Below are positions 66 to 62,247 of a DNA stretch of 64,000 nucleotides, piece after piece; position 1 is the first letter of the stretch, and the number at the start of each line of letters is the position of its first letter. Position numbers and translations under genes: made by a program. Under the pieces are notes generated by a model. It was not told the origin of the DNA and did not search any database. It saw nothing but the letters and a program-made list of their open reading frames with translations. Origin of the DNA: a phage; assembly GCA_024614665.1 (NCBI GenBank), contig GCA_024614665.1_4861.1; one strand, given 5' to 3'.

Positions 66-908
66 TTATATCGGGAGATAATGAAGGATGAGATTACCGG
101 CGTAGTTGCTGTCCGCAGCTAGCTTGATAATCGCCACACGCTGATAATCGGGGTTGTAACTATCGTTCGGTGTGACTGAAGTTATCCCCATAAATCGTGC
201 ACCTTGGAGTGCAATTTGTTCAGGTTGCGCATTCGCCCCCGTCACATATGCAAACTTTAATGGCACCACTTCATTCAACAACTCAACATCCGCTGCAGTG
301 ATTGCACGGTTGTAAACCCAATCGGTAGTGAACTGTTTTTGCAGTTCAGTCCAATCGTAACCATACGCCACATACTCGGCCTGTGGTTTACTAGCAACCA
401 CGAACGGTGCGATTATTGCGCTGAGGTCAACATCCGCCACCACATCCGCCAAGTTCGGGAAGAACTTCGCAAAGCGTAAACGGAAACCACCTTGCCAGGC
501 CAAGCAACCGGGCTTAATAGTCACATCGATTAACCAGCTTTCTCCCAAATCTTTTACTGACTGGTCAACGATATCATCGGCAACTAAAGACAAGCCGTAT
601 TTCGCATTCAGAAACGGCAACAACTCAGAGAGTTTATTTACCGGGTCGGCAACGACTACCGGTATTACGTTCCTGAACAGAATTTCCATTTCGATACGGT
701 CGTATTCGAGCGTAACGTTGCCTTTGTAGCCCTTGCCGTTCAACCCGTATAAGAGCACACGTGTATTCCGGTCAGCGCCAGGCGTTTGGACAGACTCAGG
801 GAAGCCAGTTGCAACCTGCTCCCATGTGAGTGGATTGGCCGTTAATCCGTTCTGTCGGTTAATAGCATCTAACAACATCTCTTTCGAGGGCTTATCGTAA
901 ATAGACAC
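66..908 (-). CDS. hypothetical protein, 280 aa; paralog of 919..1716 (fiber/structural-like family)
   Basis: ORF track; N-terminal similarity to the neighbouring ORF (K..LL..IN..N...P.T...V..G.PE.V); shared L..L..FN..YGLSL motif. Confidence 0.6.
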   Translation of the reverse strand: MSIYDKPSKEMLLDAINRQNGLTANPLTWEQVATGFPESVQTPGADRNTRVLLYGLNGKGYKGNVTLEYDRIEMEILFRNVIPVVVADPVNKLSELLPFLNAKYGLSLVADDIVDQSVKDLGESWLIDVTIKPGCLAWQGGFRLRFAKFFPNLADVVADVDLSAIIAPFVVASKPQAEYVAYGYDWTELQKQFTTDWVYNRAITAADVELLNEVVPLKFAYVTGANAQPEQIALQGARFMGITSVTPNDSYNPDYQRVAIIKLAADSNYAGNLILHYLPI

Positions 909-918
909 CTATACCCTC

Positions 919-1716
919 CTAGTTGTTAAAGTGTAAGTTGAGGCTACCCTGGAAGTTCGTACATTTATCGGTCAGTTGCACTGACACGACTTTCGCGAAC
1001 GCCGTATTTGCTCCCGGTAAGTCTGCAGGTACGCCGTCGAATACGACAGTGGCACCACGCAAGTTATACGGGGATGGGGTATCTTCAGCCACCCAAATCT
1101 CAGGAACACATTTGTTGAGTTCGATTGCTAACGCCGTGTCATCTACTTCGATACCGACCGCTAAGAGGCTCAGGAAACGAGAGATGTGGCTACAATCGAT
1201 GTCGCGCGAATAGATATACGCCTGACCCAACTGGATGTCCTGGTGATCCGGGTACAGAAGACCGCTCAACTCTGTATTGGTTATTACTTCTGCCAGAGGT
1301 GTAGCAGGTTTCAGCTCGATGACCGCTTGACTTCGCCACTCGTGGGAAGTTTCAACAGCAACGACTGTGTGAGTCTGTCCATCAATGGGGTTATCTTCGA
1401 TATCCTCAGGTAAGATAGACAGATTAAAACGCTCGTTAATCGCCGCTAGTAAGTCGTGCGTGGTATGCACATCTTCATCGCCAAAGGCAACATCGCCTGT
1501 AAGGTAGTCCTCTAATGGACGACGATGATAGTCCACAATCACTTGCGTACCTTCATCACCGCGCATTTTCGAGGTTAGTACCACCTCCGAATCACGACCG
1601 TCTACTGACACAACCTCCGGCAGTCCGATATCAACATCGTCAAAGGTAAGCGGTGGGCTTATCTTATTCTCTTCGTTGATGAGTTTTAGCAGATTCTGTT
1701 TTGAAGTAAAAGACAT
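919..1716 (-). CDS. hypothetical protein, 265 aa; paralog of 66..908
   Basis: ORF track; tandem paralog; palindrome TTAACTCGAGTTAA directly upstream of the ATG. Confidence 0.6.
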   Translation of the reverse strand: MSFTSKQNLLKLINEENKISPPLTFDDVDIGLPEVVSVDGRDSEVVLTSKMRGDEGTQVIVDYHRRPLEDYLTGDVAFGDEDVHTTHDLLAAINERFNLSILPEDIEDNPIDGQTHTVVAVETSHEWRSQAVIELKPATPLAEVITNTELSGLLYPDHQDIQLGQAYIYSRDIDCSHISRFLSLLAVGIEVDDTALAIELNKCVPEIWVAEDTPSPYNLRGATVVFDGVPADLPGANTAFAKVVSVQLTDKCTNFQGSLNLHFNN

Positions 1717-6800: not shown

Positions 6801-6814
6801 GCGTACCAGCCACC

Positions 6815-6838
6815 CCGAAGGATAGCTGGTATACACTT
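6815..6838 (-). terminator. UUCG-loop hairpin terminator
   Basis: Hairpin after the stop of the 1005-aa gene, followed by U-rich tract and a class-2 promoter. Confidence 0.55.
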
Positions 6839-9800
6839 AATTAGTTTCGAGCGGATCGTCTGGGATAGTAAACGTTATATCGAGTGAAGCTGTCGTGTGG
6901 TCGGGTATTGCCAAGTCACGATAAATATCATGTCCTGGGCCGTGTTCTTTATAGAGGAGATACAACCCGATTGCACGCATCGCTTCTCCAGTATAAAACC
7001 CAAAAGCCTGACCGTTATCCGTAGTAGGGTTTGCCCACGGAGACCAGGCACCGTTAATGGCTTTTCCTGGAATGTCGGTGACGGTGAAGTTGTCACCCAT
7101 CTCCTTCATCCCCATATCCATAATACGGCTCAACCCTTCCACTGTACAGCCAGCCATTGCCGCATAAGCGCTGCCTGCTATCCAGAGCGCACACATATGT
7201 GCTGTGAAATCATTCTCTACCCATACCGGTTTATTTGGTGCCGTAGGGAATTCATTCGGAGTGTGGTTGTCAAAGCGGTCTAAGAACCCTACGAGCCACT
7301 TAGCCCAATTTTCAACGTACTCTACTAGCTCTGGTGGAACCTCTTTACCACGCACAACTAATTCGTACCAACAACGCGCAGCGGCGTTATACGCGCGTGG
7401 CTGATAACCTGCCCACGGATGTCCATCTCCCCAATGGAACGTTGTCCACGTATCTGCCGGTCCGTAAGTGTAGTTATCCCAACGGTTCCAAATATACGCC
7501 GCACAACCTGGACCCAACTCACCTAACTGCGCCTGGTAGTTGGTTTGTGAATCGTGCATAAACCGAATCTGATTTAAGAGCCAGACTTTGTAGCGATCAT
7601 CGGTGTGTATGGTGTACATAAACGGATACTGATAGCCAGGATACGGCATCCCGTGCCATGCACCTAGCTGATACGTTCCTTCCGAATAAATGTTCGAGAA
7701 CGGTATCGTTCCTGGACAATACGCGAGCGAGTCAAGACGGTAATCTTTTATCGTACAATCGCCCACTTTACCCGTAAATGCAGAACCTCCCCGAATTGCG
7801 ATGCGAAACGTTAATGTCCAGCCATCATCTGCATTAAACAGTGGCGGAACATCGTTTACGCAATACCAGCTAAAGTGCGCATTCTCCACAGCCGAATCGG
7901 GCAGTATGGTTACCTGATCGATAGTTGTGTAGTTTGGCGCAGACGGTTTTGTTTCGACATCGGTATCGTGGTCAGGTTGATAGCCCGAGAGTGTTGCGTC
8001 TTCAGGGCGAATAATAACCTGTTTCCATTCCCCGTTAGTCGCGGGCAACATCCACCACCAACGCCACTTGTTGGTATCTTCGAAACGGAAGTTGAAATCG
8101 GCATCAGCACGATAGACAATTGACTGTGGGGGCGCAACTCCAGCATCGGTTAACCAGAAACCGATAATGAAGCCCGCATCGTCGTTCGGGAATAACGCTT
8201 CTACGATTGTGCCTGAACGACCATCGTAGATGTTACTCTCAAACTTCTCCTGCCACGTACACCCACCGTAATCTGAACATGCTCGCGCATCGGCAATGAT
8301 GTAATCTTCACCGTTGACCGGATTAGTCATTCTGGCCAGATGCCCTAAACCGATGTCATGCTGTTCTACCTCCATCGATGTTGATCCCGGAAGCGTACAG
8401 CCGTACCAGTTTACTTCTTCAGTATCCGCTTTAACGGGGTTAATATCCACCATCACTTTACACGCAAGTGCATCACCGTTGTCGCAAACACCGCCATACG
8501 TCACACGTAACTTCGATTGACTGTTTATCCTGAAACGCACGGCTTGCTGTTCCATAAAGTTCTGCACAGCTTTCTCAGAACGGAACACAATATCACCATT
8601 TTCATCACGACTGTAAGCGACCTCAACGGTGCTGGGGTATTTATAGTCGTACGAGATACCATCTGTAAATGGTGTTTCGGCTAACTTAGAGCGACGGAAA
8701 AACTTGTCCTTCGCATCGATATACGTGTATTCGTGCGCTGTATAGAACACCGAGTCTAGTGCGGTTTTATAGCGCGGTTCACCTGTGATACGCCAGAGGA
8801 GATAACAGGCATCAATAAACCACACTTCTGCATCTGCCGCGTTACCCATCTGGTTAACAGACCCTTTTAACGGGGTATGAACCGGACGGTTGTGCCACGG
8901 CTCATTGCGGTCAAACAAATATCCGCCGTGCTCTACAGGTACCTGGGAAGCGTAGTTAATCAAATATACACCGTTAATACTGGTGTCCTTTAATTGTACG
9001 GTTCCTTTCTGGGCATCAGGTAAACCGGATTCGATGACTTCGCCGTCTTGAACCTTCTCACCCGTCCACACAACAAACCAGTCAGGTTCGTACCGCGGAC
9101 CTTTCGAGGTAGAACCACCCCATATTGGGGTATATCCGGTTGGGTCGTTTAACATCCTGTTCCAGTCCACCCACGCTTTTACATCGTAAGGTTTCTCTGG
9201 ATTGGTGATTAAGTAATCAGGGACTTTAGACCAGTCAATTAACCCGTCTTCCGATTCCTTAATTTTCTGTACGTCAGCATTAACCGCGCCCCAGGTAGGA
9301 TGGCCACGATGCGCAGAAAAGAAATTGTTCAGATATTCACCAAAGAACGGTGCGCCTTGGGGTATCTGACAACGCCCGTTCGTAAACGTTACCGGTACAC
9401 ACTTGTAACCACCGTGGGTTGGCTCGGTCGGATGCACCGGATAGTCTGACAGCACCGGTTCTTTACCGTTAACTAGCCAGTTACAAATCCAACGTTGCGG
9501 TGACTCAGGAATGGCCTGACCTGCGTAATAGTAGGTAGCGTACGCTTCCCATGCACGAATCGCCGCATCTAACCACATCTGGTTTTTGGTAGCAATGTAC
9601 ATGTGACAGTAGCCAATAATCAGCAACGATTGGCCTTCTGTGGTGGCGTCACCGTTAGGTTGATACACAGCCATGGAGTCAGCAATGAAATGCCGGTTAT
9701 TAGATAGCACCCCTTCTGGGTTAATCAGATAATGGTCATTGTGGGCGTCGTTTGTGAGACCGGTATTGCGGCGAACAAAGTCCTGATGTCCGTAAGCCAG

Positions 9801-9854
9801 CGACATCGCATAGTTCAACGCATGTCGTTTAGCAGAGATTTTAAATTTGCGCAT
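6837..9854 (-). CDS. large Trp/Tyr/Gly-rich protein, 1005 aa; possibly alpha/alpha-toroid glycoside hydrolase or lyase-like
   Basis: 1005-aa ORF; composition and helix-rich N- and C-terminal segments suggest a carbohydrate-active enzyme; follows small fiber-like paralogs; hairpin terminator downstream. Confidence 0.6.
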   Translation of the reverse strand: MRKFKISAKRHALNYAMSLAYGHQDFVRRNTGLTNDAHNDHYLINPEGVLSNNRHFIADSMAVYQPNGDATTEGQSLLIIGYCHMYIATKNQMWLDAAIRAWEAYATYYYAGQAIPESPQRWICNWLVNGKEPVLSDYPVHPTEPTHGGYKCVPVTFTNGRCQIPQGAPFFGEYLNNFFSAHRGHPTWGAVNADVQKIKESEDGLIDWSKVPDYLITNPEKPYDVKAWVDWNRMLNDPTGYTPIWGGSTSKGPRYEPDWFVVWTGEKVQDGEVIESGLPDAQKGTVQLKDTSINGVYLINYASQVPVEHGGYLFDRNEPWHNRPVHTPLKGSVNQMGNAADAEVWFIDACYLLWRITGEPRYKTALDSVFYTAHEYTYIDAKDKFFRRSKLAETPFTDGISYDYKYPSTVEVAYSRDENGDIVFRSEKAVQNFMEQQAVRFRINSQSKLRVTYGGVCDNGDALACKVMVDINPVKADTEEVNWYGCTLPGSTSMEVEQHDIGLGHLARMTNPVNGEDYIIADARACSDYGGCTWQEKFESNIYDGRSGTIVEALFPNDDAGFIIGFWLTDAGVAPPQSIVYRADADFNFRFEDTNKWRWWWMLPATNGEWKQVIIRPEDATLSGYQPDHDTDVETKPSAPNYTTIDQVTILPDSAVENAHFSWYCVNDVPPLFNADDGWTLTFRIAIRGGSAFTGKVGDCTIKDYRLDSLAYCPGTIPFSNIYSEGTYQLGAWHGMPYPGYQYPFMYTIHTDDRYKVWLLNQIRFMHDSQTNYQAQLGELGPGCAAYIWNRWDNYTYGPADTWTTFHWGDGHPWAGYQPRAYNAAARCWYELVVRGKEVPPELVEYVENWAKWLVGFLDRFDNHTPNEFPTAPNKPVWVENDFTAHMCALWIAGSAYAAMAGCTVEGLSRIMDMGMKEMGDNFTVTDIPGKAINGAWSPWANPTTDNGQAFGFYTGEAMRAIGLYLLYKEHGPGHDIYRDLAIPDHTTASLDITFTIPDDPLETN

Positions 9855-9857
9855 GGC

Positions 9858-10328
9858 TTAGTATCCTGTTCCGCAAATGGCCCCTTTCCAGGTTGTACCG
9901 CCATCCGTAGATGACAAAGACAACACATCCTCGGCGTCTAGCGTGTACGATAACGGAGGTTCTGCACCGTTAGGCCATTTAACCGAAGCCGGCCAGGTGA
10001 TTTTGTTTGCACCGGTACCCTGACGTAGCGTCAGTAATAACTCATATCGCGTACCCGGAACAGGGTCGGTAATAGGTGTGATAGAAAGCGCAGTGGTGGG
10101 GTCACCTAAACGGATAATGAAGTCGTCCGCAATATTGGGATCTATTTCAACGATACCGTCAGCACCGGATAAGTTTTGGATAGGGTTTGCATCTGCCCCG
10201 CCGCCGATTTCACTGAGAGGAAGTTTGTACTCCTTTTCATCAACGCTAATAAGCGCTACTGCGCTCGACTTATCACCGTCGTAAGAATCGAGTTCATGCA
10301 AACGTTTCTTTTTGACTACAGTTGCCAT
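9858..10328 (-). CDS. hypothetical beta-rich structural-like protein, 156 aa
   Basis: ORF track; stop 3 nt before start of the 1005-aa gene. Confidence 0.55.
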   Translation of the reverse strand: MATVVKKKRLHELDSYDGDKSSAVALISVDEKEYKLPLSEIGGGADANPIQNLSGADGIVEIDPNIADDFIIRLGDPTTALSITPITDPVPGTRYELLLTLRQGTGANKITWPASVKWPNGAEPPLSYTLDAEDVLSLSSTDGGTTWKGAICGTGY

Positions 10329-10861
10329 TATGCATCGTCTCCGTAGGTTAACACTGCATCATCACCGATGCATAAAACAGTTTCTTCATCCAGACTTGCC
10401 ACAGCTTCTTTTTCATTAAACGCCGTGAATGTAAAGGTAGCCGTCCAAGCCGGTGAATCGTCACTCATCGGTGCAATCAACGGCTCGTTTGTTGGTGTAA
10501 TAACCCCAGTCGAGATGTCTTCACGTGACAAGTTTAAACCGCACAACTGGTTTACAACCGTCGCTAAATCAGCATAGGTGTCGCCGGGAGCTACAGTAAC
10601 CAGTATCGGTCCTTGCGGGTCGATAATCTTATTAGCGACTAGACGGTCGTAATAGACGGTAACTTTCTTGCCGTTAGGTTTACGTGCTTTCGCAATGTAC
10701 GCTTGCGAGGTACGGGCACTTTCAACACCTAAGTCGATTGGCCCTACTCCGCTTATCACAATCTCGTCAGGCGATAATGACAAGCCGTTATCGTGATTAA
10801 TTAACGCCACGACAAGCGCTTTCGACGAGAGTGTTAGGTCGGGCTGATAGCGGTCTGCCAT
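10328..10861 (-). CDS. hypothetical structural-like protein, about 177 aa; shares ..LAT.VN.L.GLNLS..DI motif with 66..908 and 919..1716
   Basis: ORF; ATG at 10859-10861 with GGAGG 7 nt upstream. Confidence 0.55.
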   Translation of the reverse strand: MADRYQPDLTLSSKALVVALINHDNGLSLSPDEIVISGVGPIDLGVESARTSQAYIAKARKPNGKKVTVYYDRLVANKIIDPQGPILVTVAPGDTYADLATVVNQLCGLNLSREDISTGVITPTNEPLIAPMSDDSPAWTATFTFTAFNEKEAVASLDEETVLCIGDDAVLTYGDDA

Positions 10862-10897
10862 TAACGCCTCCAGAAACAAAAAAATAAGCTACCACAC

Positions 10898-10925
10898 ATA
10901 TGATCGTGTGGTAGCCTACTCGTAC
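10898..10925 (-). terminator. hairpin terminator
   Basis: CTACCACAC-loop-GTGTGGTAG followed by a U7 run on the minus strand. Confidence 0.55.
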
Positions 10926-11336: not shown

Positions 11337-11720
11337 TTACGATAACTCGCCCATGTAAATTACTTCATAACCGAACCACTCACCGATATCAATAAGGTAA
11401 GAAACTAGCAAGTGGCGATGACAGAATTTCCCCGGTGGGCAATAGCACATTAGTACGACCTCGCCCTGGCGGAGAATCTCTATCAACTTATCAGTGTCTT
11501 CATCAAACAACCGACTAAGTTTCTGCAGGTAGCGTTTGGTATACGCAGCTTCTGCGTCGGGGCCTTTGTCAGACTTCTTGTAGTCCATCAGAAAGTCCCA
11601 GTCAGGTGCCAAATATTTCAGCCCCGACTTAACCGTTATATCCAGCTTTGGCAAATTCCGTTTTTCAGCTATCCGCCACTTCGCCAGTTGGAGCGTCCAC
11701 AGCTTTACATGCTTTGGCAT
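11337..11720 (-). CDS. small protein with C-x-C-x5-C-H-R motif, tentatively DUF488/YeaO-like
   Basis: Pattern K.LAP..(gap)RY..L..(gap)VVLMCYCPPGKFCHRHLL parallels the DUF488 family as I recall it; start ATG at 11720 overlaps the 3' end of the PP-loop gene. Confidence 0.45.
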   Translation of the reverse strand: MPKHVKLWTLQLAKWRIAEKRNLPKLDITVKSGLKYLAPDWDFLMDYKKSDKGPDAEAAYTKRYLQKLSRLFDEDTDKLIEILRQGEVVLMCYCPPGKFCHRHLLVSYLIDIGEWFGYEVIYMGELS

Positions 11721-12672
11721 TATTCGCTCTCTCTTTTTCTTTCTCCTGAAGCGCTTTAAAATGCGGTGCATATTCGCACCACTCTTCTGCTGTAAATGAC
11801 GTGATAAACAGTCTTTCGGTATCTTCGGTTACCGTAAAGGTTGTGTGATTTCTTTTCGGGTCCTTAAAGTTAGCAAAAGTCGGTACGTCCAAACCCATAG
11901 CAGAAATAGCACCACCAAGAGCAGAGCACCATACCCGTCTGTAAGCATCGTTGATTTTAATCTCCCATCCCACAGACGGTGTAATACCAAGACTACGATA
12001 ATTCTGCGACTTTGCCGACGGATGGGCATAAACGATGAGCATGTTATTCTCACGGTCTATCGCGAATTCGTAGTTGTTGTAGTTACTGACCTGCACCAAT
12101 CTACGAATGTCTTCCGGCAACTCCTGCCACATTTCCAGTTTCTCTTTATCCCACGCAGGTGTTAGAAGCGGTGGAACGCGGCCGGCATGATCTTGGAAAT
12201 ACATCAGTTCGCTATAAAGGTTCTTTAAGCGAGCGTACTCGTCTAATGTCCAATCTCCCAGCTCTAGACTATTCTCCAACGCATCTAGCTTATTCCAGCC
12301 AACAACTGCATAGGCGTGGTGCTGTTTGCGTGTAATGTCGCACATCAGTTTAGCGAGGCCGTTAACAACATTGCCTTGCTGAACCAGAGGCGACCAGCCG
12401 TTAGCGTAGCCGGCGCTAACGACAGGCGGAAAGTTCTCTTCCCCGAGCACCGCCCATGTAACACGATCGGTTTGTGCGTGGTATCTGTCCATTAACCGTT
12501 CAACAATGGCCACACTACAAAGAATTTCCATGAAGTTCGCGTTACCTCCATTCCACATGGAGAAATATGCAGGACGGACATGTCGCGCTTCATTGGCCGG
12601 TGCTTTGCACAACAGCTGATACATTATCCAGGTGGAATCCAACCCTGCTGAAAACGAAACAAGCTTTGTCAT
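11665..12672 (-). CDS. PP-loop ATP pyrophosphatase superfamily protein (PAPS reductase / QueC-like), about 335 aa
   Basis: N-terminal SFSAGLDST matches the SGGxDS PP-loop motif; ATG at 12670-12672 overlaps stop of upstream gene (ATGA). Confidence 0.6.
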   Translation of the reverse strand: MTKLVSFSAGLDSTWIMYQLLCKAPANEARHVRPAYFSMWNGGNANFMEILCSVAIVERLMDRYHAQTDRVTWAVLGEENFPPVVSAGYANGWSPLVQQGNVVNGLAKLMCDITRKQHHAYAVVGWNKLDALENSLELGDWTLDEYARLKNLYSELMYFQDHAGRVPPLLTPAWDKEKLEMWQELPEDIRRLVQVSNYNNYEFAIDRENNMLIVYAHPSAKSQNYRSLGITPSVGWEIKINDAYRRVWCSALGGAISAMGLDVPTFANFKDPKRNHTTFTVTEDTERLFITSFTAEEWCEYAPHFKALQEKEKERANNAKACKAVDAPTGEVADS

Positions 12673-13154
12673 TGTTTCACCGTATGTAGAAATTGATAAC
12701 GTGGGGTTTCTTCTGCCACAACATCGAAAGATGGGATGCAAACAATCTTCCCATATCCATCGAGTTCTATACGTGGAGAAATCGTGATGGTGCCTGCACG
12801 CATCACTTCAATCGCTAACGCTTTGAGTGGGCCGTGTGGTGTGAATTCACCGCGGAGTTGAAAGTAACCATCGACAACGCCATAGCAGACGTTCGATACA
12901 TAACCGCAAACGCGTACGAGTTCAATACAACGTATCCGATCAATGGCGGCCTTTACTTCCCCGAACGATTGACACGGTTTAATCACAGGCGCGTCGAATT
13001 CACAGAAAACGTGTCCGCGACGTAATGCTAACGATATCGTTTCGTCGGGACGGGCCGAGTCTTTAAATTCGTCGCACGGTATAGACAGTATCAGTCCACT
13101 CGCGGATGCCACGGTTTGTGCGGGTATTTCCTTAACCTCGGTTTGTAGTTTCAT
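12669..13154 (-). CDS. hypothetical Cys-containing protein, 161 aa
   Basis: ORF track; translationally coupled to the PP-loop gene. Confidence 0.55.
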   Translation of the reverse strand: MKLQTEVKEIPAQTVASASGLILSIPCDEFKDSARPDETISLALRRGHVFCEFDAPVIKPCQSFGEVKAAIDRIRCIELVRVCGYVSNVCYGVVDGYFQLRGEFTPHGPLKALAIEVMRAGTITISPRIELDGYGKIVCIPSFDVVAEETPRYQFLHTVKQ

Positions 13155-43989: not shown

Positions 43990-44006
43990 TTTTTAGAAAA
44001 AAAGAA

Positions 44007-44030
44007 AAAGCTTACTCCCCGAAGGGAGTA
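44007..44030 (-). terminator. UUCG-loop hairpin terminator
   Basis: GCTTACTCCC-CGAA-GGGAGTAAGC with U-run; downstream of the 766-aa gene. Confidence 0.65.
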
Positions 44031-44064
44031 AGCTAATCTTAGGCAACGTAATCCTTACGGATTA

Positions 44065-46365
44065 TTAGCCGCCAGCGCCTTCACCGCCAGTACCTGGCTG
44101 GGTAGCACCGCCGCCAACATCACCAGCATTACCACCGTCAGTACCGCCGGTGCCGTTGGAAGTAGTAGTGACGTTGAACGCCAGTTTCTCTTCCACGAAC
44201 TTGGTGATACCTTTAATCCAGATCAGACCAGTGATCGGGCAGTGGCAGATGTGCGCGTTACGAGGCTGTACTGCCAGCTCTTTGCTGGTAGCGCCGTTAC
44301 GCTGGATGTTGATGTTGGTTACCATGATCGGAGACCAGAAGTGGTTACCCCAGTTCAGAACACAGTAAGAACCATCATCAGCGGTTGGAACTTTCAGAAC
44401 CCACTGCAGGCGGCGAGTCCAGCTGCCGTCAGCTTCGTTCTTCACACGCCAGCGGTCATCGTTGGTGGTGATAACTTCGTACTCGTAGCGATCGCCCAGC
44501 AGACGCTGGTCGCCCTGAACCAGCAGCAGCATTGCAGCAGTCGGTTCGTCAGTTGCGATAACAACTTTCGGCAGTGCGTTCGGGTCCGCAGTCAGCAGGC
44601 GCAGAGCCGGCATGAAGCGAGAGTCCTGGATAGCACGAGTTACCTGGTCACCGATACGCTGTACCAGACCCTGACGGGCGTTGATGAGCGCATCTTTGGT
44701 ATCCAGAGACTGGATCACTTTGTCCACTTCGTAGTCGCTTTCGCTGTACCACGGAGCAACCCAGTGACGGCCCAGGCCGCGGATAGCAGGTTTGTCCCAC
44801 GGAGTGATCATGGACGCAGCTGCGTTCTTAACCGCTTCGGTGTAAGACAGAGTCTGAGTGATAGCCAGCATTTCGTTACGGATGTTAACCGCAGAAACGA
44901 GGTCGTCCAGACGTTCGGTGTCGTCGTATTCAACGCCAACCGGAGATTTGGTCATGATCGGAGAACCGTACTGCAGTTTGTAGTTCTCTTGTTCCCAAAT
45001 CGGGTCGAGCAGAAGGCCCTGGGTTCTCCGGTTCTCGTTGGTACGAGTACCGTCGAAGCGCCAGCCCAGCAGCTCCAGTTTCAGGTTGTCGATGATGACT
45101 TTGCCGGTGCCGCTTTCGATATCAACAGCAGTACCAGTTGCATCGTACAGACCTTCGATTTCCAGAGACGGTGCAGTCACGTCAACACGACCAGAGAACT
45201 GACCGTTGGTGAACAGAGACATGCTGATGTTCATGGAATAACGAATGGTGTAATCGTTCTGTGCCAGAGCGGCCAGTGCCGGGATTTCAGCACCTTTCCA
45301 GTCCAGAGACTTGGCGTTCAGGGAGAACACAGTGCGACGGAACTGCAGGACCAGCTCACGACCATCACCTTCAGGAGGACGCTGGAAGGTAGCGAACTGC
45401 ATGTCGCGTACGTTCAGTTTGATCAGCGCACCATCTTTCGCTTCTTCGCTCGGCTTACGCACAGACAGCAGCAGGCTACCCAGCGCTGCACCCGGTGCGA
45501 TTTCGTCGGTTTCATCGTAACCTTCCTGCACGATACCCGGATGGGCAGACAGCTGGAACAGGTTCAGACGACGCTCAGAGAAGCTCAGGTAGTTGGTCGG
45601 ATACGCCGGCACACGACCCAGCTGAACGTTTTCGTTTTCGATGATGTCTTCGGATACGAAGAACTTCGCGTTCTCACCGGTTTCCATCACGTAAGGTACG
45701 ATACGGATAGCATCGTCCTGCAGGACTTTGTGGTTAGACAGCGCGTTATGCAGCGGCTGACGGTTGTCTTCAACCACGTCTTTGGTCAGCAGGGCGTTCA
45801 GGATACCACGAGTTACAGTAGTAACTTTGGTACGAACGGTGATGCCGACGTCGTTGGTGTCCACAGTGATGGTCGGGAACAGGGTTTCTGCAAACTTGGA
45901 TTGAGTTTCCAGAGCACGCACGTTCAGCGTCCAGGTCAGACCCAGGTTTTTGTCCAGGTCTTTGTTGGTGTAGTATTCGGTTGCGACCAGCGGAGTTTTA
46001 CCGTAGTCAGCAGCCAGGGATGCTGCACCAGAAATAGCGATCGGCATATAGCTGGCGTATTCCGGCTTCGCGCTCTCAGCAGCAACACGGGTCATGAAGT
46101 CATCTTCGTGACCGGCAGCAGCCAGAATCATCGCAGAAGCAACCTGAGCAGCGTGGCTCATGGTTTTGCCAGGGTTTACAGCTTCGTAGTGCTGCTGAGC
46201 AGTGTCACGCAGGTTGGTGAAGCCGGCAGCATTTTTACGTACAGATTCGCCAACGGCTACGGTTTGCCATACGTCATTAGCGGAAGAGCCTGCCTTGGCA
46301 GCAGCGACCAGAGCATTGCCCTGCTGAACCAGCTGGTCCAGACTAGCGATACGGGTATCTTTCAT
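44065..46365 (-). CDS. highly expressed large structural-like protein (candidate major capsid or tail sheath), 766 aa, Gly-rich C-terminus
   Basis: Strong codon bias (few stops on the opposite strand, giving a 715-aa shadow ORF); flanked by promoter motif and hairpin terminator. Confidence 0.65.
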   Translation of the reverse strand: MKDTRIASLDQLVQQGNALVAAAKAGSSANDVWQTVAVGESVRKNAAGFTNLRDTAQQHYEAVNPGKTMSHAAQVASAMILAAAGHEDDFMTRVAAESAKPEYASYMPIAISGAASLAADYGKTPLVATEYYTNKDLDKNLGLTWTLNVRALETQSKFAETLFPTITVDTNDVGITVRTKVTTVTRGILNALLTKDVVEDNRQPLHNALSNHKVLQDDAIRIVPYVMETGENAKFFVSEDIIENENVQLGRVPAYPTNYLSFSERRLNLFQLSAHPGIVQEGYDETDEIAPGAALGSLLLSVRKPSEEAKDGALIKLNVRDMQFATFQRPPEGDGRELVLQFRRTVFSLNAKSLDWKGAEIPALAALAQNDYTIRYSMNISMSLFTNGQFSGRVDVTAPSLEIEGLYDATGTAVDIESGTGKVIIDNLKLELLGWRFDGTRTNENRRTQGLLLDPIWEQENYKLQYGSPIMTKSPVGVEYDDTERLDDLVSAVNIRNEMLAITQTLSYTEAVKNAAASMITPWDKPAIRGLGRHWVAPWYSESDYEVDKVIQSLDTKDALINARQGLVQRIGDQVTRAIQDSRFMPALRLLTADPNALPKVVIATDEPTAAMLLLVQGDQRLLGDRYEYEVITTNDDRWRVKNEADGSWTRRLQWVLKVPTADDGSYCVLNWGNHFWSPIMVTNINIQRNGATSKELAVQPRNAHICHCPITGLIWIKGITKFVEEKLAFNVTTTSNGTGGTDGGNAGDVGGGATQPGTGGEGAGG

Positions 46366-59632: not shown

Positions 59633-60892
59633 TTACTTAGACTTTTCGTACGCACCGATACCGGCGCTGATGTAGCCGTTAACGCCGGCGATCAGGTTTT
59701 TCTGGCCAGTTGCAACGCAACGTTCGGTCCAGGAGATGTACTGGTTCGCAACGGTGATTGCACGACGTGCAACACGGACGTTGGAAGTCAGTTCAGCGTT
59801 GTCGTCGATCTTCACGCCGTCGATACGTTTCAGCAGCGCCTCAATAGCCCGCTCGTACGATTCTTGAGCCTGGTTATTTTTGTGGTACGCTTTCACGTTC
59901 TCTTCGACTGCTTTACCCAGCTGGTTGAAGAACGCAACCAGAGAAGACAGCGTCTGAGCAGACGGAGTAGAAACAGATTTTTCTACGCTGCCTTCAGCAT
60001 CGATAACGGTGAAGGAAGCTTCCAGGTCATCCCCGTTCACTTTCACGTCAGCTTTACCGATCTGGTTACCCAGCAGTTGAACTTCGCCCGCTTTGCCTGC
60101 AGTGGCTTTGTTAACCGCTGCTGCGAAGCCGCTGTTCAGTTTCCCGCCTTCAACTGCGCTGACCATGCTGGTTGCAGCTTTGACCACTGCATCCTGCTCG
60201 CCGTAGATGCTGCCGATAGTAGACAGAACACCTTTCAGGACGTTGATGTCGTTACCGACGAACTTACCACCGGTGGTCAGGTTCTTAATGAACCCACCGC
60301 TAACGGTGTCTTTCTTCTGCTTGCCCAGGCCACGCAGAGCCGCGTCATATTTCTTAGCGCGCGCCTGAATGGATTTACCCTGGTTGCTGAACTTGAGCCA
60401 GCGATCTTTGATTTTACGGCCTTGTTCTTTCAGCCAGTCGAAGATACGCTGCAGGAACGCTTTGATGTCGTCCCACAGTGATTCACGAGCAACCTGACGG
60501 CGTTTACGTGCGCCGTAAGATTCCTGCGCAACGCTTACGCGGTGATCGAATGCCCAACGTTTACGGATAGATTCCTGCGCAACGTCCAGCTGCTCAGCAG
60601 CTTCGTCAGGCATATCTTCTTCCACTTCCATTGGCTCTTCGCCATCTTCGCCTTCGCCGTCAGCAGCGGCTTCAGCAGCATCAACTGCATCCAGCTGTGC
60701 ATCAGTTTCGTCACCGTCTTCTGCCAGCACGTCTGCTTCTGCGTCCAGCTGGTCGATCGGTTTGGTGTCATGCTCGATGTCGGCCAGGGTACCTTCCACG
60801 GACTCAGCCGGCAGCTCGATGCCATCTGGAACGACAGTGCCTGCGCCTTCGACAGATTCACGAGCGAGTTTACTTTTTACAAAGTTAGCCAT
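59633..60892 (-). CDS. paralog B of tandem pair, 419 aa; acidic N-terminal third, Lys-rich middle; putative abundant virion or scaffold-like protein
   Basis: First 15 residues (MANFVKSKLARESVE) and C-terminal GIGAYEKSK identical to 60970..62247; strong codon bias. Confidence 0.6.
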   Translation of the reverse strand: MANFVKSKLARESVEGAGTVVPDGIELPAESVEGTLADIEHDTKPIDQLDAEADVLAEDGDETDAQLDAVDAAEAAADGEGEDGEEPMEVEEDMPDEAAEQLDVAQESIRKRWAFDHRVSVAQESYGARKRRQVARESLWDDIKAFLQRIFDWLKEQGRKIKDRWLKFSNQGKSIQARAKKYDAALRGLGKQKKDTVSGGFIKNLTTGGKFVGNDINVLKGVLSTIGSIYGEQDAVVKAATSMVSAVEGGKLNSGFAAAVNKATAGKAGEVQLLGNQIGKADVKVNGDDLEASFTVIDAEGSVEKSVSTPSAQTLSSLVAFFNQLGKAVEENVKAYHKNNQAQESYERAIEALLKRIDGVKIDDNAELTSNVRVARRAITVANQYISWTERCVATGQKNLIAGVNGYISAGIGAYEKSK

Positions 60893-60908
60893 CTTTTTCT
60901 ATCCTCTA

Positions 60909-60929
60909 GGCGGTACGCCGTGTACCGCC
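60909..60929 (-). terminator. hairpin between the tandem paralogs
   Basis: GGCGGTAC-GCCGT-GTACCGCC immediately upstream of the SD of 59633..60892; may attenuate or structure the inter-paralog region. Confidence 0.4.
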
Positions 60930-60969
60930 ATTAATGATTTGTCAACTGACGTTCAGTACGTAAAGCGGA

Positions 60970-62247
60970 TTAAGCTTTAGACTTTTCGTACGCGCCAATA
61001 CCAGCGCCGATGTAGCCGTTCAGGCCGCTGATAACAGTGTTACCAACGTGAGCCACAGCACGGTTCAGAGTCTGGTAGTTACGCACAGCCTGGTCAGCTG
61101 CAGTGCGTGCATTACGCAGCGCTTCCCACTCGCCTTCGTCGTTGGATTTTTTCAGAGCGGCAGCAGCTTTGGCAGCAGCCTCTTCCAGTTTCTCAACGTC
61201 AGCATCGTAGCTGCGGAAGTCTTGCAGGACTTTCTCGAAGCCTTTACCGATAACGTCCAGGGCAGACGCAGCAGATGCCAGTGCAGAAATAGCCGGAGTA
61301 GCGATTTCTTTCGTTTCAGAAACGTCACCCGTCGACAGGAAGGCCACTGCGGTGAATTCCTGACCGCCTGCCAGAGTTTTGGTGCCGGTCTGTACATAGG
61401 CGTTGCCTGGCAGTGCCAGAACTTTCTGACCGCCTTCGCCGTCTTCGAATTGCGGCAGTGCGCGCAGTTTCTTCGCAGCGGTACCAAACAGGGCAACGTC
61501 AACAGCGCCTTTAGCAGCGGTTGCGGTACCGTCTGAAGTTTTGGTGATCGCTACAGCAGAGTCAGCCGCCTGAGAGGACAGCTTGTTGATAGCATCTTTC
61601 GCTTTACCGCCGGTCAGCTCTTTCGCGATAGCGATAGAGTTGGCCACATCGAATTCACCTTCGATAGACAGTTTGCTAATAAAGCCACCAGAAATGTTTT
61701 CTTTCTTCTGTTTGCCGAGCTTACGCAGCATCTCCTGGTAAGCTTTCGCACGTTTCTGCGCGGACTTACCAACGTTGATGTACTTCAGTTTCAGCTCTTT
61801 CGCTTTCGCGATAACTGCTTTACACAGTTCAACGAAGCGTTCGAACAGATCTTTCAGGGTTTCTTTCCAGCCTTCCTGAGCTGCTTTGGTCATGCCACGG
61901 CCACGGCGATAAGATTCGCGTGCCAGTTTGGTACGATCGATAGCCCAACGTTTACGGATAGATTCCTGCGCCACTTCGGTGTGAGCGATGGCTTCTTCAG
62001 GCATCTCTTCACCGTTTTCGATTTTTTCGTCAGCAGCGTCGATAGCAGCTTCGGTACGCTCGGTATCAGCAGCCAGAGTTTCCTGGTCACCATCGAGCTG
62101 TTCCAGCTGACCGTCGATAGACGCAACTTCTGCCAGCTGAACGTCGATGTTCTCTTCTGCCGGTTCAACGTTGCTCAGACCGTCGATTACGTCGCCGGTA
62201 GCTTCAACGGACTCGCGGGCGAGTTTACTTTTTACAAAGTTTGCCAT
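60970..62247 (-). CDS. paralog A of tandem pair, 425 aa
   Basis: Tandem duplicate of 59633..60892 with conserved termini and diverged middle. Confidence 0.6.
   Translation of the reverse strand: MANFVKSKLARESVEATGDVIDGLSNVEPAEENIDVQLAEVASIDGQLEQLDGDQETLAADTERTEAAIDAADEKIENGEEMPEEAIAHTEVAQESIRKRWAIDRTKLARESYRRGRGMTKAAQEGWKETLKDLFERFVELCKAVIAKAKELKLKYINVGKSAQKRAKAYQEMLRKLGKQKKENISGGFISKLSIEGEFDVANSIAIAKELTGGKAKDAINKLSSQAADSAVAITKTSDGTATAAKGAVDVALFGTAAKKLRALPQFEDGEGGQKVLALPGNAYVQTGTKTLAGGQEFTAVAFLSTGDVSETKEIATPAISALASAASALDVIGKGFEKVLQDFRSYDADVEKLEEAAAKAAAALKKSNDEGEWEALRNARTAADQAVRNYQTLNRAVAHVGNTVISGLNGYIGAGIGAYEKSKA

Follow-up and report, generated by a model that had tools for sequence, protein, structure and literature searches.

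Tail appendages in which a small adaptor carries a distal enzyme are known from the T7-like phage KP32 (gp37/gp38), from SP6 and K1-5 (gp37 adaptor) and from CBA120 with its branched tailspikes. A second group of described systems comprises phi92 gp140/gp141, AlexBoehm bas56_0024/0025 and SSE121 gp037/gp038, in which a small protein with the PF26209 domain is followed by a barrel protein of ~860-960 aa; the Vequintavirinae barrel-protein pairs are annotated as 'lateral tail fiber protein with glycosidase domains'. Here we analyzed a related 4-kb locus in a phage DNA stretch of 64,000 nucleotides (nt) (contig GCA_024614665.1_4861.1; referred to in full as the window). The locus is 99.2% identical in nucleotide sequence to Enterobacteria phage SEGD1 and 98.9% identical, over its whole length, to the Salmonella jumbo phage SPN3US, identities by which the window is a genome of the genus Seoulvirus. 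Its three genes are the orthologues of SPN3US gp122, gp123 and gp124 and are called by these names below. Published work on SPN3US placed gp124 and gp123 in a tail class by mass spectrometry, but gave no fold, function or partner relationship (PMC5694885; PMC10052503). With slightly better than even confidence, we propose that gp124 is a carbohydrate-active enzyme at the periphery of the tail, held by a gp123 adaptor and joined via gp122 to the DUF7941 protein system, and that it acts on a glycan common to many Gram-negative hosts. The fold, homology, synteny, gene fusions and cassette swap behind this proposal come from our analysis, and the tail location comes from the literature. The catalysis by gp124, its substrate, its contact surfaces and its exact site on the tail are what we infer.

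The locus resembles the first group of systems in that a small anchoring protein precedes a larger predicted enzymatic protein, and the related pair in the podovirus Atoyac23 carries the T7 fibre N-terminal anchor. It differs from that group in that gp124 is modelled as an alpha-barrel, not a trimeric beta-helix, and the contact between gp123 and gp124 is only putative. The barrel proteins of the second group are 27-40% identical to gp124. Their pairs lie inside the baseplate gene cluster, some have a Tail_spike_N anchor, and they have no DUF7941 partner, unlike the trio described here.

An earlier note, made from the letters of the window alone, had singled out three open reading frames (ORFs) at 6837-10861 as translationally adjacent, with an enzyme-like protein of 1005 aa as the largest in the window. 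This description was accurate, and the three ORFs are co-directional on the minus strand. The stop codon of gp122 and the start codon of gp123 overlap in TAATG, gp123 and gp124 are separated by a 3-nt spacer, and the runner-up to the 1005-aa ORF is 913 aa long. On the coding strand, the trio is bracketed by two terminator-like hairpins:

6837-9854, minus strand: gp124 homologue (1005 aa, ATG start), a virion tail protein; split (alpha/alpha)6 barrel in the model
9858-10328, minus strand: gp123 homologue (156 aa, ATG start), a putative adaptor with a PF26209 beta-sandwich at ~50-156
10328-10861, minus strand: gp122 homologue (177 aa, ATG start; an alternative TTG start at 10879 would give 183 aa), a C-terminally shortened DUF7941 protein
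10882-10921, minus strand: terminator-like hairpin with a T-run, ahead of the ribosome-binding site (GGAGG) and the start codon of gp122
6804-6831, minus strand: terminator-like hairpin, 6 nt past the gp124 stop codon

The gp124 protein is richer than the other ORFs of the window in Trp (3.8 vs 1.4%), Tyr (6.0 vs 4.1%) and Gly (8.1 vs 6.0%), as had been noticed earlier. Its AlphaFold2 model, computed with 61 homologues as input, is confident (predicted local distance difference test, pLDDT, 89.4; predicted template modelling score, pTM, 0.87). Helices occupy residues ~2-109 and ~744-971, which bears out the helix-rich ends read from the letters. A further helix pair lies internally at ~340-375, and the intervening stretches are beta structure. 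The three separated helical segments form a six-hairpin (alpha/alpha)6 barrel, into which beta-rich regions are inserted at ~150-320 and ~400-703. The tentative guess of an alpha/alpha-toroid is therefore supported at the level of the fold. The nearest structural neighbors are enzymes of the (alpha/alpha)6-barrel type; whole-chain matches in a Foldseek search of the PDB were of low TM (template modelling) score only. The barrel is like those of glycoside hydrolase (GH) families GH8/GH48 (clan GH-M), GH76 and GH88/GH105, which are ~10% identical to gp124 and gave no profile matches; it differs from them in being broken by the two large beta insertions. The suggestion that gp124 is carbohydrate-active draws support from the barrel fold and from its enzyme neighbors. 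A classical trimeric parallel beta-helix depolymerase is ruled out, as the model is an alpha-barrel with beta-sandwich insertions. The sole profile match of gp124 is to PHROG 2871, 'tail protein'. Other annotators have already labelled its homologues 'glycosidase' or 'glycosyl hydrolase'.

Conservation provided further insights into the barrel. Across 16 homologues that are 29-61% identical to gp124, the invariant residues are E73, Q75, D341, E343, D348, R387, R416, D593 and N667, together with D699, Y738, Q742, N761, Q770, W789, R791, R820 and R827. In the model, E73 and D341/E343 are located in the first turn of barrel helices, and D348 likewise sits at a helix N-terminus. Combining their conservation and predicted positions, we regard E73, D341, E343 and D348 as candidate catalytic or ligand-binding residues. 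The barrel protein also occurs with added domains in the three variants P0116, P0013 and P0106: one has an RCC1-like propeller inserted at a point equivalent to gp124 residues ~422-434, a second has a ~690-aa C-terminal extension with Big_2 domains, and a third ends in a podophage 'Gp77 fiber-tail adaptor' domain.

The model of gp123 is beta-rich, in agreement with the small beta-rich protein described earlier. Residues 1-47 have low confidence, and residues ~50-156 form a beta-sandwich matching Pfam PF26209 (Phage_phiTE_241_C), a name taken from precomputed Pfam annotation. The 47-residue N-terminus contains no recognisable anchor domain. Structurally, the gp123 domain resembles the N-terminal and fibre-proximal domains of CBA120 TSP4. 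Sequence searches of the PDB with gp122, gp123 and gp138, a DUF7941 protein encoded elsewhere in the window, returned nothing significant, including the PhiKZ baseplate entry named in a recent preprint on phage Goslar (10.64898/2026.04.21.720040).

Homologues of gp124 are present in 542 phage records. The carriers include Vequintavirinae, phi92-like phages, Phapecoctavirus, 121Q, Kolesnikvirus, 53-kb Salmonella myoviruses, Vibrio phages and a T7-like Aeromonas podovirus, in addition to many prophages and metagenomic contigs from Pseudomonas, Shewanella, Acinetobacter, Brenneria and marine bacteria. In seven lineages (SSE121, AlexBoehm, phiEa104, Atoyac23, Vibrio D493, 121Q and a Salmonella prophage), the gp124 homologue is immediately preceded by a gene whose product matches, at its C-terminus, a hidden Markov model (HMM) of the gp123 C-terminal domain, with E-values of 1e-19 to 1e-25. 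The same HMM matches phi92 gp140 (E 5.5e-28), which adds an eighth lineage outside Seoulvirus, so that adjacency of the gp123-gp124 type is kept in 9 lineages. The N-termini of the small proteins depend on the lineage: Phage_T7_tail, the N-terminal domain of the T7 tail fibre, is found in the podovirus protein Atoyac23_09, and Tail_spike_N is found in the Vequintavirinae AlexBoehm and SSE121. In a P2-like prophage there is no small protein; instead, the barrel protein continues directly from the baseplate protein gpI (Tail_P2_I) in a single fusion, encoded after gpV, gpW and gpJ. We infer from these arrangements that gp123 is an adaptor, with a lineage-specific N-terminal anchor and a conserved C-terminal docking platform.

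In phi92, the homologues of gp124 and gp123 are gp141 (contig L015, 1-2588; 40% identical to gp124) and gp140 (contig L026, 1739-2212). A 2026 structure paper on phi92 lists gp140 among unassigned fibre candidates, does not mention gp141 and leaves 'fiber II' unidentified. The gp140/gp141 pair is an obvious candidate for this fibre. The phiTE structure paper and the S144 paper contain nothing on the gp123 and gp124 homologues, and our literature searches yielded nothing specific.

The earlier note proposed virion proteomics as a check on the 1005-aa protein, and data from SPN3US place both gp124 and gp123 in the tail (PMC10052503). Table S2 of that study gives mean peptide-spectrum matches (PSM) for wild-type SPN3US and for tailless 255(am107) particles, with a virion cut-off of 10 PSM. 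The counts for gp124 are 177 in the wild type and 6.7 in tailless particles, and those for gp123 are 18 and 0; both proteins are classed as 'Tail' (PMC10052503). Normalized to mass, the two are similar, with 0.64 PSM per kDa for gp124 and 0.42 for gp123 (supplement of PMC5694885). Among the DUF7941 proteins here, an abundance pattern like that of a tail protein is seen for gp122 alone.

The gp122 protein links this locus to a larger family. The earlier note had recognized a motif shared with two tandem paralogues near one end of the window, and all three proteins match Pfam DUF7941 (PF25613), with E-values of 2e-17 for gp122, 7e-68 for the product of 919-1716 and 5e-70 for that of 66-908; the common motif therefore reflects true homology. 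The two paralogues are:

919-1716, minus strand: gp138 homologue, a full-length DUF7941 paralogue; head fraction in SPN3US
66-908, minus strand: gp139 homologue, a full-length DUF7941 paralogue; head fraction in SPN3US

The match of gp122 scores 64 bits (gathering cut-off 27) and covers profile positions 3-162 of 276; further profile matches are phrog_2935 and phrog_1037. Only the N-terminal ~150 residues of gp138 and gp139 align with gp122, which consists of an N-terminal globular module and a linker and lacks the C-terminal ~110 residues of these paralogues. It is therefore not a full DUF7941 architecture, and its length class matches the short type described for Goslar gp23 (10.64898/2026.04.21.720040). 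An earlier study had already placed it, speculatively, in SPN3US paralogue family B (PMC5694885). Both gp138 and gp139 belong to family B and are classed as 'Head' (PMC10052503), and both were found in tailless heads (PMC5694885).

Synteny suggests that the association between DUF7941 and the barrel is not peculiar to Seoulvirus. A DUF7941 gene lies directly upstream of the gp124 homologue in Erskinevirus, in Goslarvirus and in two metagenomic jumbo-phage contigs. The full order of a DUF7941 protein (177-182 aa), a small protein (154-168 aa) and a ~1000-aa barrel is seen in Erwinia phage Asesino (Erskinevirus) and in the contigs L016 and L018; gp124 identity in Asesino and the two metagenomic contigs is 79%, 78% and 67%. 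In Goslar, gp092, described as a DUF7941-glycoside hydrolase fusion (10.64898/2026.04.21.720040), shows homology to gp124 in its residues 277-1188, which correspond to 19-966 of gp124 with 37% identity over 970 residues; gp093, directly upstream, is a DUF7941 protein resembling gp122. Goslar gp092 thus shares with our locus the gp124-homologous body and the upstream DUF7941 gene, but it has a DUF7941-like module fused to the barrel and no gp123-like adaptor in the stretch, where Seoulvirus has three polypeptides. The ~276-residue N-terminal extension of gp092 was assigned to DUF7941 by the preprint (10.64898/2026.04.21.720040). Our own profile tests of it were weak (Pfam 16.7 bits, E 0.005; hhalign probability <1% with a 3-sequence profile), so that this label rests mainly on the preprint. 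The DUF7941 identity of gp122, the upstream synteny and the Goslar fusion agree with the earlier proposal that the enzyme-like protein is linked to the paralogue family. The description of that family as fiber-like also fits, since Goslar gp22, a DUF7941 protein, forms head-to-tail filaments in negative-stain electron microscopy (10.64898/2026.04.21.720040). Elsewhere in Goslar (gp089-gp091; contig L022, 38887-43395), the gene for the short DUF7941 protein gp091 (175 aa) is directly followed by those for a P1 gpS-like tail fibre and for the chaperone of its assembly. Since Goslar DUF7941 genes precede both a tail fibre gene and the gp124 homologue, such genes repeatedly flank fibre-type genes.

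Within Seoulvirus, the small proteins have been exchanged together. In Lh1B, EC001 and JN03, gp122 and gp123 are only 49% and 41% identical in amino acid sequence to the proteins described here, and the flanking genes are 93-98% identical. At the nucleotide level, homology to Lh1B breaks off at window position 10752 and restarts at 9815, which defines the exchanged block:

9816-10751, minus strand: exchanged recombination cassette, comprising the whole of gp123, most of gp122 (residues ~37-177) and the 13 codons with which gp124 begins

The incoming alleles are closest to L016, the metagenomic Erskinevirus-like contig (83% and 77%). The joint swap suggests that the N-terminal tip of gp124 works in concert with both small proteins. 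As judged by sequence comparison, natural variation falls on the connectors gp122 and gp123, not on the barrel.

Taken together, gp122, gp123 and gp124 may constitute one late-gene cassette for a peripheral tail appendage of this Seoulvirus jumbo phage. The working end would be gp124, a predicted glycoside hydrolase (most likely) or related glycan-processing enzyme with two beta-sandwich insertions, whose probable target at adsorption is a conserved glycan of the envelope or matrix. As the small adaptor, gp123 would offer its C-terminal beta-sandwich as a docking platform and use its short N-terminus as a lineage-specific anchor. The shortened DUF7941 module gp122 could tie the complex to the chimallivirus-specific DUF7941 system. 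The authors of the BASEL collection noted that much of the fibre locus of Vequintavirinae is conserved and probably aimed at conserved glycans, which agrees with this reading of gp124.

Several observations weigh against the proposal. Neither whole gp124 nor any of five sub-segments matched an entry in Pfam or NCBIfam, leaving it in no curated GH family, and searches of PDB sequences (phmmer and a 61-sequence profile) gave no match to any glycoside hydrolase family. The same type of barrel is also found in epimerases and terpene cyclases. The reported receptor of SPN3US is the flagellum, not a glycan, so that any glycan step catalyzed by gp124 would be accessory or secondary. With 7.3 PSM in the wild type (7, 7, 8) and 0 in tailless particles, gp122 was classed as 'Non-virion' because it falls below the 10-PSM cut-off (PMC10052503). 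The other DUF7941 paralogues purify with tailless heads, which contradicts a simple picture in which the whole family sits on the baseplate. Finally, we rejected the idea that the gp123-type domain is reserved for docking gp124: PF26209 is found as well ahead of a 1500-aa protein that has no relation to gp124, so the docking platform is not gp124-specific.

It is also conceivable, although we consider it unlikely, that gp124 is a non-catalytic receptor-binding protein, in which the barrel and its insertions bind a surface glycan in a lectin-like manner and the conserved acidic residues serve binding. The lack of sequence membership in any GH family agrees with this idea. Weak Foldseek matches to glycan-binding and carbohydrate-binding module (CBM)-like beta-sandwiches suggest the presence of binding modules, and the propeller inserted at ~422-434 in one homologue is what a swappable binding module would look like. 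However, the closest structural neighbors of gp124 are enzymes, and E73, D341, E343 and D348 are kept across 29-61% identity, a pattern expected of an active site. The very high conservation across host genera is also easier to square with an enzyme whose substrate is common to these hosts than with a protein that binds a specific receptor.

A different placement of the trio, to which we give a similarly low probability, would put it at the enzymatic end of the chimallivirus DUF7941 filament system, or make it the anchor of that system on the tail side. If so, a conserved barrel enzyme that processes glycans would be held on the virion by DUF7941 modules acting as universal connectors. Connector and enzyme would form one polypeptide in Goslar gp092, whereas in Seoulvirus and Erskinevirus they would be separate proteins accompanied by a further adaptor. 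Which connector network the enzyme joins would depend on the swapped gp122-gp123 cassette. A baseplate-anchored 'fiber cloud' was proposed for Goslar, and PhiKZ gp127 was noted in the outer baseplate map, in the preprint, which itself states that the Goslar preparation co-purifies large assemblies (10.64898/2026.04.21.720040). The two sources differ on where DUF7941 proteins reside: proteomics of the tailless SPN3US mutant puts most of them in the head fraction (gp138-gp154; window 66-1716), and the Goslar preprint describes baseplate-anchored filaments. This placement of the trio could reconcile the 'head' location in SPN3US with the 'baseplate' location in Goslar and PhiKZ.

The earlier note had gone further and proposed that gp124 is a depolymerase which, with the DUF7941 paralogues at 66-1716, makes up one host-recognition module that is split over two locations and determines host range. 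The enzyme-like fold and tail location of gp124 are compatible with this idea, as are the filament and host-recognition proposal for Goslar (10.64898/2026.04.21.720040) and the DUF7941-gp124 fusion in that phage. We find it improbable, because the variation in gp124 does not behave accordingly. Its nucleotide identity to four Seoulvirus relatives is 96-99%, and per-gene identities showed it to be no more divergent than the neighboring genes, so a hypervariable depolymerase is rejected; the variation is confined to gp122 and gp123. The gp124 proteins of Seoulvirus phages whose recorded hosts are Salmonella, E. coli and Proteus are 96.8-99.5% identical, including 96.8% in the E. coli phage Lh1B, and the gene of 'Proteus phage 7' is 98.7% identical in nucleotide sequence. 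Across many unrelated phages, gp124 is 27-60% identical. Allelic variability that tracks host specificity was not seen for gp124 within Seoulvirus, and a role in setting host range is not supported: gp124 is a conserved accessory, not a variable host-range switch. A single surface module split over two locations is likewise unproven, as gp138 and gp139 are head-fraction proteins in SPN3US.

The least probable alternative is that gp124 and gp123 have a purely structural role, or belong to the neck or collar and not to the baseplate, and are missing from 'tailless' particles only because the neck is lost too; a 53-kb Salmonella myovirus prophage does encode the pair between its tail terminator and sheath genes, beside Big_2 proteins, the gp123 domain resembles the Pa223 capsid spike (as is the case for phi92 gp140, PMC13450770), the SPN3US authors allow that some 'tail' proteins may belong to the neck, and Goslar has collar filaments (10.64898/2026.04.21.720040), but in Vequintavirinae, phi92 and the P2-like prophage the pair is either part of the baseplate gene cluster or joined to gpI as a fusion, and it occupies the tail-fibre position in the T7-like podovirus.

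Several other features of the window were observed. The gp120 homologue (11337-11771, minus strand; DUF488 family) overlaps the 3' part of the upstream gp119 homologue (11665-12741, minus strand; 358 aa) by ~100 nt; with the annotated SPN3US starts, the overlap is 56 nt. The ORF at 12669-13154 (minus strand) corresponds to SPN3US gp117, which RefSeq names 'head maturation protease' and which has been discussed as a diverged paralogue of the prohead protease gp245 (PMC5694885). GC content has local maxima at 44001-46000 (0.544) and 60001-62000 (0.534) over a background of ~0.47-0.49; the first of them coincides with a 766-aa minus-strand ORF that carries a 715-aa antisense ORF.

The genes of the trio, the virion location of gp124 and gp123 and the 'glycosyl hydrolase' label on homologues are already public. 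The fold evidence, the pairing of a PF26209 adaptor with the barrel across nine lineages, the split-versus-fused relation to DUF7941 and the gp122-gp123 swap appear to be new. Overall, the gene family of gp124 is ordinary and already known, its enzymatic function is unproven, and some useful new architectural links are added to it.

Jumbo chimalliviruses are candidates for phage therapy, and their adsorption apparatus is poorly defined. Our analysis ties an uncharacterised and very widespread tail protein family to an enzyme-type fold, to a portable adaptor domain and, in jumbo phages, to the DUF7941 filament proteins, and it offers gp140/gp141 as a concrete candidate for the phi92 fibre. Engineering gp124 is unlikely to shift host range; the gp122-gp123 cassette is the part that is exchanged in nature.

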